DNA of 8,336 bases from a virus (IMGVR_UViG_3300012983_000662), one strand, 5' to 3'. Positions 1 through 8,249 are shown, counted from the first letter of the stretch. The notes: generated by a model from the sequence alone, not told the origin. Numbers and translations are program-made.

Positions 1-66
1 AAAGTAAATACCGCCGGACCGGATGATGTTGATCCGCTGGCGGAGCTTTTAAAAGCGAGAGACTGA
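1..66 (+). CDS. 3' end of upstream gene, probably terminase small subunit (partial; C-terminal 21 codons plus stop)
   Basis: Frame 1 reads ...KVNTAGPDDVDPLAELLKARD then TGA at 64-66, overlapping the ATG at 66 of the large terminase (TGATG). Identity is inferred only from position immediately upstream of terL. Confidence 0.4.
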   Translation, partial: KVNTAGPDDVDPLAELLKARD

Positions 67-1823
67 TGGCAAAAGTGGCTGACGGGATCCGCTACGCCGA
101 ACGTGTTGTTGCAGGAGAAATTGTTGCTGGCGAATTTGTCCGCCTAGCCTGCCAGCGTTTTCTTGATGATCTGAAGTACGGCGAAGAGCGGGGGATTTAT
201 TTCAGTGAACCCCGTGCGCAGCACATCCTGAATTTCTACAAATTTGTGCCTCATGTGAAAGGGGCGCTGGCAGGCCAGCCCATTGAACTGATGGACTGGC
301 ATGTATTTATCCTCATTAATATTTTTGGTTTTGTCATTCCGCTGGTGAATGAAGAGACCGGGGAAGTTGTCATGCGCAGCGATGGCAGCGGACGTCCGGT
401 GATGGTGCGCCGGTTCCGGACGGCGTACAACGAAGTAGCCCGTAAAAACGCAAAATCAACTCTGTCATCGGGTATCGGCCTGTATATGACGGGGGCAGAT
501 GGTGAAGGCGGAGCTGAGGTGTATTCAGCCGCAACCACGCGTGACCAGGCCAGAATCGTGTTTGAAGACGCCAAAAATATGGTCAGAAAAGCCCGGTTGA
601 CACTCGGGCGGTTGTTTGATTTCAACAAGCTGGCGATTTACCAGGAGCAGAGCGCATCAAAATTTGAACCGCTTTCTTCGGATGCAAACAACCTGGATGG
701 TCTGAACATTCACTGCGCCATCATTGATGAGCTGCATGCACATAAAACCCGTGATGTGTGGGACGTTCTGGAAACGGCAACCGGTGCCCGTCTGCAGTCC
801 CTTTTATTTGGTATCACCACGGCAGGGTTTAACAAGGAAGGGATTTGTTACGAGCAGCGTGATTACGCCATCAAGGTATTGCGTGGCTATAACAGCGATG
901 TGGAGGGCGCTGTAAAAGACGACTCCTACTTTGCGATTATTTACACCCTCGATGAGGGAGATGATCCGTTTGATGAAACGGTCTGGCAGAAAGCGAATCC
1001 CGGCCTGGGCATTTGTAAACGCTGGGATGATCTGCGTCGTCTGGCGAAAAAAGCGAAAGAACAGGTCTCTGCGCGGGTGAATTTTTTTACCAAACACATG
1101 AATGTGTGGGTAACCGCAGAGTCTGCCTGGATGGACATGATTAAGTGGGAGAAGTGCGAATACATTGCCCCACGACATGAGCTGAAAACGTATCCCATGT
1201 GGGTCGGCGTTGACCTTGCTCATAAGATTGATATCTGTGCGGCGGCAAAACTCTGGCGAACGGATAACGGGCATGTTCATGCCGATTTTAAATTCTGGCT
1301 CCCGGAAGGACGGCTGGAACGATGCTCGCGGCAGCAGGCAGAACTTTACCGGAAGTGGGCGGAGATGGATAAGCTGATTCTGACGGATGGTGATGTTATC
1401 GATCATGCTCAGATAAAAAGTGACTTACTGGAATGGATTGGTGGTGAAAACCTCAGGGAACTGGGATTTGACCCGTGGAGCGCGATGCAGTTCAGCCTGG
1501 CACTGGCTGAAGAAGGGATACCGCTGGTGGAGGTTCCGCAGACGGTTCGCAATCTGTCAGAGGCCATGAAGGAAACGGAATCACTGGTCTATGCCGGGCG
1601 TTTCCATCACAGCAATCATCCGGTCATGAACTGGATGATGTCTAACGTTACGGTAAAACCGGACAAAAACGACAATATCTTCCCGAATAAATCCACGCCG
1701 GAAGCCAAAATCGACGGCCCTGTTGCGATGTTTACAGCAATGAGCCGGATGCTGGTCAATGGTGGTGAACCGGAGCCGGATCTGTCTGAACATCTGGTCA
1801 GCGTGGGCATCCGCTCGCTTTAA
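66..1823 (+). CDS. Terminase large subunit (ATPase plus nuclease domains), 585 aa
   Basis: Long ORF translationally coupled to the upstream gene. Walker-B-like hhhhDE motif ([11 protein letters not shown]), a candidate deviant Walker A about 95 residues upstream ([10 protein letters not shown]), and a C-terminal RNase-H-like nuclease signature ([11 protein letters not shown]). Sits immediately upstream of the portal gene. Family call is from motif recall, not a search. Confidence 0.9.
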
Positions 1824-1834
1824 CCGAGGTCATT

Positions 1835-2017
1835 ATGTTTCTGATAATTCTCGCGTCACTGGTGGGCGTGCTGGGTGCGCTTTTGCTGGCGTATGGTGCT
1901 TGGCTGATTTATCCCCCGGCGGGTTTTGTTGTTGCCGGGGTGCTGTGCCTGTTCTGGTCGTGGCTGGTGGCGCGATATCTCGACCGTACACAGCCGTCTG
2001 TCGGCGGAGGTAAATAG
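1835..2017 (+). CDS. Small hydrophobic membrane protein, 60 aa, two predicted transmembrane helices, function unknown
   Basis: GAGGT at 1826-1830, 4 nt before ATG 1835. Stop TAG 2015-2017 overlaps the portal GTG start at 2017 (TAGTG). CTG-rich codon usage like the flanking genes. Sequence [60 protein letters not shown] has two hydrophobic stretches and a short charged C-terminal tail. Confidence 0.6.
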
Positions 2018-3258
2018 TGTTCTTTTCGGGATTATTTCAACGAAAAAGTGACGCGCCGGTGACCACGCCAGCAGAGCTGGCGGATGCTATCGGGCTGTCA
2101 TATGACACCTATACCGGAAAGCAGATCAGCAGCCAGCGGGCCATGCGACTGACGGCGGTTTTTTCCTGCGTCAGGGTGCTGGCAGAGTCTGTCGGGATGT
2201 TGCCCTGCAATCTGTATCACCTGAACGGCAGCCTGAAACAGAGAGCCACCGACGAACGTCTGCATAAGCTGATCTCCACGCATCCCAATGGCTATATGAC
2301 GCCGCAGGAGTTCTGGGAGCTGGTGGTCACCTGTCTGTGCCTGAGGGGAAACTTTTACGCCTACAAAGTGAAAGCATTTGGCGAAGTGGCTGAATTGCTG
2401 CCCGTCGATCCCGGCTGTGTGGTACCGAAGCTTAACAGTAGCTGGGAACCGGTCTATCAGGTCACATTCCCGGATGGCTCCACGGATGTACTGAGCCAGG
2501 AGGATATCTGGCATGTGCGCACGCTGACGCTGGACGGACTGGTGGGGCTGAATCCCGTCGCCTATGCCCGCGAGGCAATATCGCTGGCGGCAGCGACCGA
2601 AGAGCACGGGGCCAGACTGTTCAGCAATGGTGCGGTGACGTCGGGTGTGTTGCGTACAGAGCAGACGCTGTCAGATCAGGCTTACGAGCGCCTGAAGAAA
2701 GATTTTGAGGAGCGTCACACCGGGCTTGGCAATGCTCACCGCCCGATGATCCTTGAGATGGGGCTGGACTGGAAGTCGATGGCGCTGAACGCCGAGGACA
2801 GCCAGTTCCTGGAAACCCGCAAGTTTCAGCTTGAAGAAATCTGTCGTCTGTTCCGGGTACCGTTGCACATGGTGCAGAACACCGATCGCGCCACCTTCAA
2901 CAATATCGAAGAACTGGGGCTCGGATTTATCAACTATTCACTGGTGCCGTATCTGACCCGCATCGAACAGCGGATCAACACCGGACTGGTACGAAAAAGT
3001 AAGCAGGGCGTTTATTACGCCAAATTTAACGCCGGGGCGTTACTGCGCGGGGATATGAAGTCCCGTTTTGAAGCCTACGCCACCGGGATTAACTGGGGAA
3101 TTTACTCTCCCAATGACTGCCGCGACCTGGAAGATATGAATCCGCGTCCCGGTGGGGATGTCTATCTCACACCAATGAACATGACCACGAAACCCTCCGA
3201 TGGCAGTAAAGCCGGTAAGCAGAAGGATAACGCCAATGCAGACGAAACAACGTCTTGA
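2017..3258 (+). CDS. Portal protein (HK97-family-like), 413 aa
   Basis: GTG start at 2017 with GGAGG at 2006-2010, 6 nt upstream. Size and position (after terL, before prohead protease) fit an HK97-type portal. N-terminus MFFSGLFQRK... is portal-like. No search was run. Confidence 0.9.
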   Translation: MFFSGLFQRKSDAPVTTPAELADAIGLSYDTYTGKQISSQRAMRLTAVFSCVRVLAESVGMLPCNLYHLNGSLKQRATDERLHKLISTHPNGYMTPQEFWELVVTCLCLRGNFYAYKVKAFGEVAELLPVDPGCVVPKLNSSWEPVYQVTFPDGSTDVLSQEDIWHVRTLTLDGLVGLNPVAYAREAISLAAATEEHGARLFSNGAVTSGVLRTEQTLSDQAYERLKKDFEERHTGLGNAHRPMILEMGLDWKSMALNAEDSQFLETRKFQLEEICRLFRVPLHMVQNTDRATFNNIEELGLGFINYSLVPYLTRIEQRINTGLVRKSKQGVYYAKFNAGALLRGDMKSRFEAYATGINWGIYSPNDCRDLEDMNPRPGGDVYLTPMNMTTKPSDGSKAGKQKDNANADETTS

Positions 3259-3886
3259 TGTACCGCTGAGTCTGAAATCTGTCAGTGACTCCGGTGAGTT
3301 TGAAGGGTATGGCTCCGTCTTTGGTGTAAAGGACAGCCACGATGATGTGGTGATGTCCGGGGCATTTGCTGCTTCCCTGCGGGCGTGGAGTGACAGAAAA
3401 GCGTTACCTGCGCTGCTCTGGCAGCACCGCATGGATGAGCCCATCGGTGTTTACACCGAAATGAAGGAAGACGATGTCGGGCTTTACGTCAGGGGGCGGC
3501 TGCTCATTGATGATGATCCCCTCGCAAAACGCGCACATGCACATATGAAGGCCGGTTCGTTAACCGGCCTTTCTATTGGGTACGTCCTGAAAGACTGGGA
3601 ATACGACCGGAGCAAAGAAGCCTTTCTGCTGAAAGAAATCGACCTCTGGGAAGTCAGTCTGGTGACGTTCCCGTCTAACGACGAGGCGCGGATCAGCGAC
3701 GTCAAGAACGCGCTGGCCCGCGGGGAAATCCCCGAACAGAAAAAAATCGAAAGAGTCCTGCGTGATGTTGGACTCTCCCGTACCCAGGCCAAAGCATTCA
3801 TGGCCGGGGGCTATGGCGCACTGTCCCTGCGCGACGCTGAGGATGTGGGCTCTGCACTGAATGCACTGAAAAATCTGAACTTCTAA
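3236..3886 (+). CDS. Prohead maturation protease (HK97 gp4-like, S78/U35-type)
   Basis: ATG 3236 preceded by GAAGGA at 3222-3227; it overlaps the portal 3' end by 23 nt. An in-frame ATG at 3200 (ORF track) has no Shine-Dalgarno motif. Motifs EFEGYGSVFGVKDSHDDVVMSGAF and LTGLSIGY resemble the conserved His and Ser regions of HK97-type prohead proteases. Located between portal and capsid genes. Confidence 0.85.
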   Translation: MQTKQRLDVPLSLKSVSDSGEFEGYGSVFGVKDSHDDVVMSGAFAASLRAWSDRKALPALLWQHRMDEPIGVYTEMKEDDVGLYVRGRLLIDDDPLAKRAHAHMKAGSLTGLSIGYVLKDWEYDRSKEAFLLKEIDLWEVSLVTFPSNDEARISDVKNALARGEIPEQKKIERVLRDVGLSRTQAKAFMAGGYGALSLRDAEDVGSALNALKNLNF

Positions 3887-3900
3887 TCAGGAGAAATACG

Positions 3901-5106
3901 ATGGCGGTAGATATTAAAGATGTCGAACAGGTCGCGCAGGAGCTGCAGCAGAAGTTTGACGACTTCAAAGCAAAGAACGACAGGCGCGTGGATGCGATTG
4001 AGCAGGAAAAAGGCAAACTTGCCGGGCAGGTGGAAACCCTGAACGGAAAACTCAGCGAGCTGGAAAATCTCAAAAGCGATCTTGAAAAAGAGCTGCTTGA
4101 GCTGAAACGTCCGGCAGGTGGTGTGCAAAATAAACTGGCCACTGAGCATAAAGAGGCTTTTGTGGATTTCCTGCGTAAAGGCCGTGAAGACGGTCTGCGC
4201 GATCTGGAGCGCAAGGCATTGCAGGTGGGCACCGATGAAGATGGAGGCTACGCCGTGCCGGAAGAACTGGATCGCAACATTCTCAACCTGCTGAAAGATG
4301 AAGTGGTGATGCGTCAGGAAGCCATGGTGATCACCGTTGGCGGTTCCGACTACAAAAAACTGGTGAATCTGGGCGGTACGGCTTCCGGATGGGTGGGGGA
4401 AACGGATACGCGATCCCAGACTGCTGCCTCAAAACTGGGACTGATTGAACCTTTCATGGGGGAAATCTACGGTAACCCGCAGGCCACCCAGAAAATGCTG
4501 GATGATGCCTTTTTCAACGTGGAGGCCTGGATCAACAGCGAGCTGGCAACCGAATTTGCCGAACAGGAAGAAATTGCCTTTACCACCGGCGATGGTACCA
4601 AGAAGCCGAAAGGGTTCCTGGCGTATGAGTCCACTGATGAAACCGACAAGGTCCGGGCGTTCGGCAAACTTCAGCATATTGTATCCGGCGAAGCGACGGC
4701 AGTGACCGCAGATGCCATTATCAAACTGATTTACACGCTGCGTAAGGCACACCGCACCGGCGCGAAGTTCATGATGAACAACAACAGCCTGTTTGCCATT
4801 CGTCTGCTGAAAGACACCGAGGGTAACTATCTGTGGCGTCCGGGGCTGGAGCTGGGACAGCCGTCCTCTCTGGCGGGTTACGGTATCGCTGAAAACGAAC
4901 AGATGCCGGATATTGCCGCTGATGCGAAAGCCATTGCATTTGGTAACTTCAAACGGGGTTACACCATCGTTGACCGTATCGGTACCCGCATTCTGCGTGA
5001 CCCGTACACCAATAAACCGTTTGTCGGTTTTTATACCACCAAGCGCACCGGCGGCATGCTGGTCGATTCGCAGGCCATCAAACTGCTGAAGATTGCAGCG
5101 GCGTAA
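3901..5106 (+). CDS. Major capsid protein, HK97-fold, with N-terminal coiled-coil delta (scaffolding) domain, 401 aa
   Basis: AGGAG at 3889-3893, 7 nt before ATG 3901. The first ~100 residues are rich in E/K/L heptad-like sequence (VEQVAQELQQKFDDFKAKNDRRVDAIEQEKGKLAGQVETLNGKLSELENLKSDLEKELLELK). No separate scaffold gene lies between protease and capsid. Size and synteny fit HK97-type capsid proteins. Confidence 0.9.
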   Translation: MAVDIKDVEQVAQELQQKFDDFKAKNDRRVDAIEQEKGKLAGQVETLNGKLSELENLKSDLEKELLELKRPAGGVQNKLATEHKEAFVDFLRKGREDGLRDLERKALQVGTDEDGGYAVPEELDRNILNLLKDEVVMRQEAMVITVGGSDYKKLVNLGGTASGWVGETDTRSQTAASKLGLIEPFMGEIYGNPQATQKMLDDAFFNVEAWINSELATEFAEQEEIAFTTGDGTKKPKGFLAYESTDETDKVRAFGKLQHIVSGEATAVTADAIIKLIYTLRKAHRTGAKFMMNNNSLFAIRLLKDTEGNYLWRPGLELGQPSSLAGYGIAENEQMPDIAADAKAIAFGNFKRGYTIVDRIGTRILRDPYTNKPFVGFYTTKRTGGMLVDSQAIKLLKIAAA

Positions 5107-5156: not shown

Positions 5157-5345
5157 ATGATCCTGAAACAAGATCTGAAATGGTCACCGGACGGTATGCG
5201 TGTTGAGATCATTCGGGCCGGTGAGTATGAAGATAAAGAATTACCCGAACGGGTACGCGAAATTGCCACTGCAGCTGGGATTGTCTCTGATAAGAGAACA
5301 CCTGTTGCGCGGGGGGCTGATAAGTCTAAAAAACAGCATTCATAG
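5157..5345 (+). CDS. Hypothetical small protein, 62 aa, basic C-terminus
   Basis: AGGTGA at 5144-5149, 7 nt before ATG 5157. Stop TAG 5343-5345 is 11 nt before the next start. Fills the gap between capsid and connector genes. I recognise no family. Confidence 0.45.
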   Translation: MILKQDLKWSPDGMRVEIIRAGEYEDKELPERVREIATAAGIVSDKRTPVARGADKSKKQHS

Positions 5346-6856: not shown

Positions 6857-7561
6857 ATGTCCTCTAATTTTGAGCGTTCGCAACTGACGAAAATTATGAT
6901 TTCGTCTGCACCGGTAACAGCAGAAACCCTGGATTCTGCCAGCTTTCTTGGGCTGAGCTGTACAATCAAAGAAGTGCAGTTTACCGCAGGACAAAAGCAG
7001 GATATTGATGTCACCACGCTGTGTTCTGTTGAGCAGGAAAATATTAACGGTCTTGGTGCCGCGTCAGAGATTTCCATGTCAGGCAACTTTTACCTCAATG
7101 CTGCCCAGAACGCGTTGCGTAGTGCCTATGACAATGACACCACGTATGGCTTTAAAGTTATTTTTCCGTCAGGCAACGGATTTACCTTTATGGCAGAGGT
7201 GCGTCAGCATACCTGGTCTGCAGGAACCAATGGTGTTGTGGCTGCAACGTTTTCCCTGCGTCTGAAAGGTAAACCTGTGCTGACGACAGAGCCGCTAAAA
7301 GTGAAGGTCGATTTAAACAGCACGCTGCAGATTTCTGCCGGAGCGAAACTTGAAATGGCGGTTGAGGCTGCGGGTGGTGTGCCGCCTTATTCTTATGTCT
7401 GGAAGAAAGGTGGATCTCCTGTTTCCGGACAGACGGCGGCAACGTTCAGTAAGGCATCCGCAGTATCCGGTGATGCGGGTGCATATACCTGCGAGATTTC
7501 TGATTCAGCAAGCCCTGTTAACAAGGTGACCTCCACTTCCTGCACTGTTACCGTCAGTTAA
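6857..7561 (+). CDS. Major tail (tube) protein with C-terminal Ig-like domain, 234 aa
   Basis: AGGAG at 6846-6850, 6 nt before ATG 6857. Positioned between the tail terminator and the tail chaperone genes. The C-terminal ~90 residues (PPYSYVWKKGG...SGDAGAYTCEISD...CTVTVS) carry Ig-fold hallmarks: a conserved Trp and a D.G.Y.C F-strand motif. Confidence 0.7.
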   Translation: MSSNFERSQLTKIMISSAPVTAETLDSASFLGLSCTIKEVQFTAGQKQDIDVTTLCSVEQENINGLGAASEISMSGNFYLNAAQNALRSAYDNDTTYGFKVIFPSGNGFTFMAEVRQHTWSAGTNGVVAATFSLRLKGKPVLTTEPLKVKVDLNSTLQISAGAKLEMAVEAAGGVPPYSYVWKKGGSPVSGQTAATFSKASAVSGDAGAYTCEISDSASPVNKVTSTSCTVTVS

Positions 7562-7575
7562 TGAGGATAGATGTG

Positions 7576-7947
7576 ATGACTAAAAATATCCGTAATCTGG
7601 CACTGGCAACGATGTCGGGGTTTCGCCATAAAACCGTTGATGTGCCTGAATGGGAGGGAGCAACGGTTGTGTTACGGGAACCTTCTGCAGAAGCCTGGTT
7701 GCGCTGGCAGGAGATCGTTAAAGCAAAAGATGATGAGACACCGTTATCCGTTGCGGAGCGCGCCCGCCGAAATCTGGAGGCAGATGTTGAACTGTTCATT
7801 GATGTTCTGTGTGATACCGGACTGCAACCTGTATTTTCAGAGGATGATCGTGAACAGGTGATTGCCGTGTATGGCCCGGTGCATGCGCGGCTTCTTCGGC
7901 AGTCTCTGGAACTGATCAGTGATGCCGGCGAGGTTAAAAAAAAGTAG
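7576..7947 (+). CDS. Tail assembly chaperone (lambda gpG functional analogue), zero-frame product
   Basis: GAGGA at 7563-7567, 8 nt before ATG 7576. In-frame alternative starts exist at ATG 7561 (overlapping the major tail stop, TAATG) and GTG 7573. Acidic protein ending ...AGEVKKK and terminating inside a slippery A-run. Located directly upstream of a -1 frame ORF and the probable tape-measure gene. Confidence 0.75.
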   Translation: MTKNIRNLALATMSGFRHKTVDVPEWEGATVVLREPSAEAWLRWQEIVKAKDDETPLSVAERARRNLEADVELFIDVLCDTGLQPVFSEDDREQVIAVYGPVHARLLRQSLELISDAGEVKKK

Positions 7948-8249
7948 CGCTTCCGGGGATGCGTTTTCTGATGATGCTGGCGCTCAGGATGGGGCGCACA
8001 TTGTCAGAGTTACGCCGGGAAATGTCCGCATCAGAAATCATGATGTGGGCAGAATTTGACAGGTTCAGCCCGCTGGGGGACGAACGGGCTGATATCCGGG
8101 CTGCCCAGATTGTTTCAGCTATTTACGGTGCGCAGGGGGTTAAAGTACTACTGAATGATGCGCTTCTTCAGTGGGAACAAGAGCAGACAGAAGGCGTCTC
8201 AGATCCATTTGCCGGACTGGAAAACGCGCTTTTAATAGTGTCTCAGTGA
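7576..8249 (+). CDS. Tail assembly chaperone frameshift fusion (lambda gpGT analogue), produced by -1 ribosomal slip at 7938-7944
   Basis: The ORF 7959-8249 is in the -1 frame relative to the G-like ORF and is open back through the slip site (codons after the slip read GTA GCG CTT CCG GGG ATG...). Its own ATG at 7959 has no convincing Shine-Dalgarno motif. Predicted junction: ...GEVKKK-VALPGMRFLMML... Confidence 0.65.
7938..7944 (+). promoter_or_regulatory. Programmed -1 ribosomal frameshift slippery heptamer A_AAA_AAG
   Basis: Sequence GTTAAAAAAAAGTAG: zero-frame codons AAA AAG at 7939-7944 are followed by stop TAG 7945-7947. The heptamer fits the X_XXY_YYZ rule and is identical to the E. 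coli dnaX slip site. Confidence 0.7.

Follow-up and report, generated by a model that had tools for sequence, protein, structure and literature searches.

A YmfR-family mini-protein of predicted membrane type is very probably translationally coupled to the HK97-type phage portal gene

What is a 60-residue, strongly hydrophobic protein doing between the genes for the large terminase and the portal of a phage head module? The question arises from an 8,336-nucleotide stretch of viral DNA (IMGVR_UViG_3300012983_000662), analysed over its whole length and called the window here. ORF calling and Pfam searches delineate a head module of HK97 type across it, with genes for the large terminase (terL), the portal, an S78 prohead protease and the major capsid protein (Table 1). 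An initial annotation, made from the sequence of the window alone, had described a 60-aa ORF that fills the gap between terL and portal, carries its own Shine-Dalgarno motif and ends in a stop codon overlapping the portal start. Our re-analysis confirmed the coordinates, the GAGG motif, which lies within the 11-nt spacer between the terL stop and the ATG of the mini-ORF, and the TAGTG overlap at its other end. By size, such an ORF is unremarkable: the six frames of the window contain 66 ORFs of at least 40 aa, among which an ORF of 60 codons is, on its own, not unusual. It is therefore conservation that shows the mini-ORF to be a gene.

Table 1. Coordinates of the mini-ORF, its parts and signals, and the neighbouring head genes, counted from the first nucleotide of the window.
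Feature	Position	Strand	Basis or remark
Large terminase gene terL	66..1823	+	PF03354 and PF20441; stop codon 1821-1823
Shine-Dalgarno-like GAGG of the mini-ORF	1826..1829	+	5 nt 5' of the ATG; same place in 79/79 close relatives
Mini-ORF, putative membrane protein of the YmfR / PHROG 502 family	1835..2017	+	ATG, 60 codons plus TAG
Predicted helix 1, residues 2-25, hydrophobic	1838..1909	+	Hydropathy, AlphaFold2; conserved G11, G14, G21, W23
Tight turn Y-P-P-A-G, residues 26-30, no charge	1910..1924	+	Column conservation
Predicted helix 2, residues 31-46, hydrophobic	1925..1972	+	Invariant G35, S42; near-invariant C38, W41
C-terminal tail, residues 47-60, basic, variable	1973..2014	+	Predicted cytoplasmic
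Portal ribosome-binding site GGAGG	2006..2010	+	Inside the final mini-ORF codons (G-G-G-K)
TAGTG, one-base overlap of mini-ORF stop and portal start	2015..2019	+	TAG 2015-2017, GTG 2017-2019
Portal gene, HK97-type, constant 3' partner of the mini-ORF	2017..3258	+	PF04860, E 2.6e-108; synteny surveys
S78 prohead protease	3200-3886		Longest ORF
Major capsid protein	3901-5106		

The initial annotation had proposed looking for the ORF at the terL-portal junction of related prophages, and this check bore it out. All 79 close relatives in IMG/VR carry an intact 60-aa ORF, encoded by 36 distinct nucleotide sequences. Among them, changes at the codons for G14, G21, P28, G30, C38 and R47 are synonymous only, and on close pairs pN/pS is about 0.32 for the mini-ORF versus 0.05-0.15 for the portal. 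The mini-ORF is thus under purifying selection, weaker than that acting on the portal. We are highly confident that it encodes a real membrane mini-protein coupled to the portal.

The same annotation had read the protein as a two-helix membrane-type hairpin with a short charged tail, and this description stands. With a GRAVY of +1.27, the 60-residue sequence has a hydropathy profile in which two hydrophobic stretches (residues ~2-24 and ~29-46) flank the turn YPPAG. AlphaFold2, run with an alignment of 20 sequences, places helices at residues 2-25 and 27-52 with a mean pLDDT of 72.7. As modelled, the mini-protein is a hydrophobic helix-turn-helix hairpin of membrane type, followed by a basic C-terminal tail of 14 residues. 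The best conserved stretch in the family comprises 11 residues and runs from late helix 1 through the turn into early helix 2. At 61 loci sampled from different species, no variation is seen at G11, G14, W23, G30, G35 or S42, and G21 is kept in 60/61; C38 and W41 vary very little, and position 47 holds R or K in 58/61. In a diverse alignment of 28 sequences, G14, G21 and G35 are still invariant, and P28 and G30 nearly so. The tails of the 61 loci run to 9-20 aa and are variable, with a mean K+R of 2.7, while the N-terminal tail is minimal and the turn essentially uncharged. Under the positive-inside rule, both termini would face the cytoplasm (N-in/C-in) and the YPPAG turn would be periplasmic.

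Variation within the family is patterned in other ways as well. Residue 54 (codon 1994-1996) is hypervariable, being P, S, L, M, Q or R in E. coli and Shigella copies that are otherwise almost identical, and residues 2-4 (FLI or IML) largely follow the terL type. Two metagenomic family members, P0147 (102 aa) and P0155 (122 aa), are tandem fusions of the whole hairpin, which suggests that hairpins normally pair or oligomerize.

Searches for the identity of this protein led to a family that is already catalogued. PHROG 502 ('membrane protein') matches residues 1-55 with an E value of 1e-26, and by this sequence match the mini-protein is YmfR of the E. coli e14 prophage rather than anything new; neither Pfam (E up to 1) nor NCBIfam gave a match. 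We collected 159 homologues, nearly all of them 60 aa long. The gene occurs in 1387 of 5426 complete E. coli genomes, always beside a 'phage portal protein', and PGAP calls most copies ymfR. The window copy is 92-99% identical to E. coli copies at the nucleotide level and has Ser8 where most copies have Pro. Phages carrying the family include ST64B, SfI, SfII, SfIV, phiP27, phiKO2 and PY54; the ORF is annotated in ST64B (sb3), SfII, SfI, phiP27 and 118970_sal3, and present but unannotated in SfIV. Record names range from SfII_03, a 'putative integral membrane protein' (likewise in phiP27), to phiKO2 Gp3 and ST64B Sb3, and everywhere that we met the family, in phages of Shigella, Salmonella, Klebsiella and Yersinia, it was annotated as 'hypothetical' or 'membrane protein'. 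In the literature searched, mentions of ymfR are confined to gene lists, deletion lists and expression tables, with no function reported. A profile search of 1.84 billion representatives extended the family to 354 clusters at 50% identity, almost all of them stand-alone proteins of 45-90 aa; its distant members are mostly metagenomic sequences, one coming from an alphaproteobacterial MAG. We found no homologue with a solved structure, and a fold search of the model against viral predicted structures returned only uncharacterized small proteins, none at E <0.001.

Several database records of this region deserve comment. In an e14-type cryptic prophage of E. coli EC2648-R2 (locus 1841-3578), ymfR is intact and overlaps the portal in the same way, although its neighbours are a 5'-truncated terL pseudogene and a 3'-truncated portal pseudogene; its survival there could be due to chance, the gene being a small target, or to retention by selection. 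GenBank OR844959, 'Enterococcus phage Efm 3-10' (1764 bp), and a 'Bacillota bacterium' MAG contig are 95-99% identical to the enterobacterial portal region, and their attribution to Gram-positive hosts is likely contamination or mislabelling. In the record of phage vB_EcoM-606R7 (6698-7759), the portal annotation begins at an internal start codon and covers 1062 nt rather than about 1242, so that 180 nt after the mini-ORF look like a gap and the stop/start overlap is obscured.

We surveyed the partnership with the portal from both sides. From the side of the mini-protein, a degenerate DNA pattern for GAW..Y.PAG[FY] produced 120 matches in IMG/VR, 115 of them with enough downstream sequence. 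A PF04860-type portal ORF lies immediately 3' in 114 of these 115 family members, and 103 of the 114 show the one-base stop/start overlap. From the side of the portal, a seven-portal alignment retrieved 80 loci, with portals 99-36% identical, from a collection holding one genome per species; two loci cut at a contig end were left out, leaving 78 evaluable. About 64 of the 78 have an intact family member, in Enterobacterales, Halomonas, Marinobacter, Shewanella, Aeromonadaceae and others. At nearly all of these intact loci, stop and portal start share a single base, the last of the one and the first of the other; three are offset by a few bases. The mini-ORF is frameshifted at two loci, in Shigella and Xenorhabdus prophages, and one more is ambiguous and may be frameshifted. 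Look-alike hairpins that our custom family profile missed or matched weakly occupy three loci, one of them matching PHROG 502 (E 4e-9), and eight loci have no mini-ORF.

A second portal-side sample, drawn by portal motif, comprised 91 evaluable portal genes. An abutting two-helix mini-ORF accompanies 33 of the 91 (27 from the family, 6 other), a proportion that is approximate because seven re-used loci were added by hand, versus 0 of 233 other ORFs of at least 300 aa at the same loci. The initial annotation had called such a protein unexpected in a head module; with the family catalogued, and a mini-ORF of this kind at about one-third of the sampled HK97-type portal genes, that judgement has to be withdrawn.

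Head modules without the gene are equally instructive. In HK97, terL abuts the portal gene and the mini-ORF is absent, and in Gilliamella, Motilimonas and Endozoicomonas prophages, whose portals share 64-71% identity with that of the window, terL overlaps the portal start directly. The mini-ORF is therefore not required for portal function and is accessory at most, and these mini-ORF-less head modules can serve as natural 'deletion' controls. A motif at the portal N-terminus, MF.[PSN]..F, was also considered as a mark of the partnership; it occurs at 61/61 genome loci with the mini-ORF and at 0/9 without. This candidate was dropped as a lineage signal: 36 of 114 distant members have other N-termini, and portals lacking the mini-ORF start similarly hydrophobic.

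The junction with the portal gene has the marks of coordinated translation. In 59 of 61 relatives the mini-ORF has a Shine-Dalgarno-like motif within its final 16 nt, the portal ribosome site, which lies in the codons for the C-terminal residues G-G-D/E/K of the mini-protein. Combined with the one-base overlap, this embedded site indicates that mini-ORF and portal would be made together, at the low level typical of a portal, and makes translational coupling of the two very likely. The earlier proposal of a gene coupled to the late head genes is supported.

Inheritance, too, points to the portal. Homology to the window starts at ~1804-1806 in ST64B and the Sf phages and only from ~1806 in 64 of the 79 IMG/VR relatives, and the breakpoint to relatives with a different terL type coincides with the terL 3' end (window ~1765-1850). 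The terL genes fall into classes about 35% or 70-90% identical to that of the window, regardless of the mini-ORF, and relatives with a ~35% identical terL retain the same mini-ORF plus portal. Phage Evi presents the reverse case: it has the terL 3' end in common with the window, to which the Evi group matches only up to ~1765, whereas its mini-ORF and portal are different ones. Across pairs, mini-protein identity is correlated more strongly with portal identity (rho 0.57) than with terL identity (rho 0.22), coefficients that are meaningful in size only, the pairs being phylogenetically non-independent. As far as these comparisons reach, the mini-ORF is inherited with the portal and not with terL.

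Nor does the mini-ORF depend on other modules. HK97/S78-type prohead proteases are found in the relatives SfII, YeP1 and ST101-KPC2phi6.3, and a serine or S49-type peptidase serves as head protease in Marinobacter AS1 and Kpn74. ST64B and the Sf phages are myoviruses, and phiKO2 and PY54 are siphoviruses. The gene is independent of these modules in that it accompanies two kinds of head protease and both tail types.

Other small ORFs lie further along the window. One of 62 aa (5157-5345), between the major capsid and head-tail connector genes, is hypothetical in relatives and, by eye, not hydrophobic. Two consecutive ORFs (7561-7947 and 7959-8249) follow the major tail gene (6857-7561); their counterparts in a phage with a 98.9% identical terL-portal junction region are annotated as tail assembly chaperones, and the pair may contain a programmed frameshift of the G/GT type.

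What might a membrane-type companion of the portal do? By analogy, and tentatively, we favour an accessory protein of the inner membrane that would partner the portal early in head assembly, in the manner of T4 gp40 but unrelated to gp40. The mini-protein would be made in step with the portal at a low level, and its hairpin would insert into the inner membrane in the N-in/C-in orientation. Hairpins may then self-associate via the invariant glycines and other small residues, an idea supported by the tandem-fused members, and, as head assembly begins, hold portal rings at the membrane or nucleate them there. Such a hairpin would improve head assembly and not be indispensable, because some related head modules work without the mini-ORF. 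Membrane-associated assembly has precedents. In T4, gp40 helps the portal initiator to form on the inner membrane (PMC9958956); in SPP1, open procapsid precursors are located at the membrane only when portal protein is produced, and the authors describe the mechanism as unknown (PMC13212656). Between terL and portal of SPP1 we found no hydrophobic ORF; SPP1 genes 3-5 were considered as analogues and rejected, being hydrophilic.

Part of the evidence counts against this assembly role. Conservation sits in the intramembrane hairpin and turn, whereas contact with the portal would fall to the cytoplasmic tail, a short and variable segment. HK97 and some prophages with close portals do without the gene, and its pN/pS of 0.32 exceeds the 0.05-0.15 of the portal. 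A membrane anchor for assembly was one of the options listed by the initial annotation, and of those options it best fits the comparative data, although it is still unproven. A wider form of the idea, which we regard as unlikely, is that the YmfR / PHROG 502 hairpin and sisters such as PHROG 7105 constitute an unrecognized class of head-assembly factors, acting as low-copy inner-membrane oligomers that recruit or template the portal ring. If true, it would supply a mechanism for membrane-associated procapsid initiation in a large group of temperate Proteobacteria phages.

The assembly reading has to be weighed against accounts that place the protein elsewhere. It is possible, if somewhat doubtful, that the protein is a late membrane effector unrelated to head assembly and fixed in an insertion-tolerant slot between terL and portal, where it might serve superinfection exclusion in the late period, tune lysis timing or membrane potential, or counter a membrane-bound host defence. 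A conserved intramembrane hairpin is what such an effector would be expected to have if it acted on the membrane or on a conserved host membrane protein, and some lineages do without the gene. In size, in having two helices and in its basic C-terminal tail, the mini-protein also resembles class II holins and small exclusion proteins. Moreover, the terL-portal junction is known to take insertions in other phages (PMC7302621, PMC5513430). Accessory effectors, however, are normally sporadic and mobile, and this one keeps a single position and a single overlap geometry down to 36% portal identity, found 5' of portals (33/91) and not of other large genes (0/233). Pfam (E up to 1) contains no matching holin family, PHROG matches are labelled 'membrane protein' or unknown, and PADLOC defence models gave no match. 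The predicted two membrane helices and charged C-terminus, cytoplasmic by the positive-inside rule, do agree with a holin, and a pinholin-like role had been among the initial suggestions; it is disfavoured by the missing family match and by vB_EcoM-606R7, the phage with the 98.9% identical junction region, in which a complete cassette of holin, lysozyme and Rz lies 5' of terS. On these two grounds we rejected the mini-protein as the phage's holin; coupling to the portal, implying low expression, would also fit a pore-former poorly. An ejection peptide, associated with the virion, made with the portal, situated in or near the portal channel and set free on infection to help DNA across the inner membrane, is improbable. 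Genetic coupling to the portal would suit it, and a channel could be built from a small hydrophobic hairpin whose helices are rich in glycine, but a protein with a GRAVY of +1.27 is expected in the membrane of the producer cell, not in soluble form for packaging. Contractile and non-contractile tails alike go with the gene, tape-measure or tail-tip proteins usually do this job, and the literature searched yielded no report of it as a virion protein.

Two further accounts fare worse still. The initial annotation had raised moron-type cargo, and we judge it very improbable that the gene is an independently expressed cargo gene benefiting the lysogen, for example by lysogenic conversion or HK97 gp15-like exclusion. 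It is indeed an 'extra' gene between genes that are adjacent in HK97 and in the Gilliamella, Motilimonas and Endozoicomonas prophages, PHROG places it in the category 'moron, auxiliary metabolic gene and host takeover', and the decayed e14 prophage retains ymfR intact between truncated terL and portal pseudogenes. Against this, the gene has no usable signals of its own: in a consensus scan, the only nearby promoter-like site has its -10 at 1843-1848, 3' of the ATG, the window as a whole has fewer promoter-like sites than shuffled sequence, and a terminator scan found no + strand terminator between 1823 and 2100. The 'putative rho-independent terminator' of the SfII record KC736978 (2370-2419, window ~1843-1892), which would lie inside the mini-ORF, was likewise not found by that scan. 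Composition is not foreign, with a GC3 of 0.62 versus 0.61-0.67 for the portal, protease and capsid genes, and the tight coupling to the portal goes with a synteny that is near-invariant down to 36-40% portal identity. Without promoter, terminator or foreign composition, we rejected a typical moron. In e14, a treatment that likewise switches on the SOS regulon raises ymfR by ~4.5 log2, in concert with other e14 genes (PMC10012262), so that ymfR behaves like the rest of the prophage and not like a separately expressed gene. Least credible of all is a functionless peptide whose ORF is a spacer or upstream ORF passing ribosomes from terL to portal and setting portal translation. Both the one-base overlap with its embedded portal ribosome site and the lineages in which terL overlaps the portal start in the same way would accommodate it; amino acids, however, are conserved while codons vary, with near- and fully invariant positions and a pN/pS of 0.32, and length and hydrophobic pattern are retained over 354 clusters. 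RNA structure at the locus is not unusual, the fold z-score of -0.93 being no better than that of shuffled sequence, and a regulatory RNA element was rejected on the same result. Read-through or frameshift fusion of the hairpin to the portal was rejected as well, a TAA in the portal frame standing at 2011-2013, just 5' of the GTG. The initial verdict that nothing could be decided from sequence was thus too pessimistic, as comparative genomics leaves considerably fewer options.

The gene itself is ordinary, being catalogued and present in about a quarter of complete E. coli genomes. Its strict, translationally coupled companionship with the portal over deep divergence is another matter; we found no description of it in the literature searched, and none of two-helix mini-ORFs at about one-third of sampled HK97-type portal genes. 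The reason for which portals and procapsid precursors are found at the cell membrane was restated as an open question for SPP1 in 2026. The YmfR family offers a small candidate for the membrane link of portal-initiated head assembly, one that is genetically testable in tractable E. coli and Shigella prophages.

Comparison with known systems sets the mini-protein apart from most of them. Lambda gpW occupies the same terL-portal position and has a similar size; gpW is soluble, whereas the mini-protein is hydrophobic and has no PF02831 match at E up to 1 in Pfam, and we rejected membership of the gpW family, as the initial annotation had done. The label 'head-tail joining protein W', given to the ORF in GenBank ON470580, ON470584, ON470603 and PQ793804, seems to be a recurrent positional mis-annotation, which our analysis corrects. 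Class II holins and pinholins such as S21 of phage 21 share about 60-70 aa, two membrane helices, an N-in/C-in topology and a basic C-terminal tail; the mini-protein differs in lying outside the lysis cassette, coupled to a low-abundance gene. HK97 gp15 is a small membrane protein for superinfection exclusion, encoded by a moron inside the structural operon. It is encoded among the tail genes with expression signals of its own, is made in the lysogen and is sporadic, whereas the mini-ORF has no signals of its own and is fixed beside the portal. T4 gp40 resembles the mini-protein, by analogy only, as a phage-encoded, membrane-associated helper for the portal initiator (PMC9958956). It differs in being a 114-aa acidic protein with a basic C-terminus and no hydrophobic helix, encoded away from the portal gene, and was rejected as a homologue when BLASTP found no alignment at E up to 100. 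Nearer at hand is PHROG 7105, a 53-aa ORF of Evi and its relatives, which has the same slot, a stop/start overlap (TGATG), a two-helix hairpin and a basic tail. It shows no pairwise BLAST similarity to the mini-protein, and its partner portal belongs to a lineage 28% identical; the Evi protein nevertheless also matches PHROG 502 (E 1.3e-6), which makes PHROG 7105 probably a remote sister family. Closest of all is YmfR / PHROG 502 itself, with the same ~60 aa, the same predicted hairpin and the same slot 5' of the portal, from which the mini-protein of the window differs in nothing of substance.
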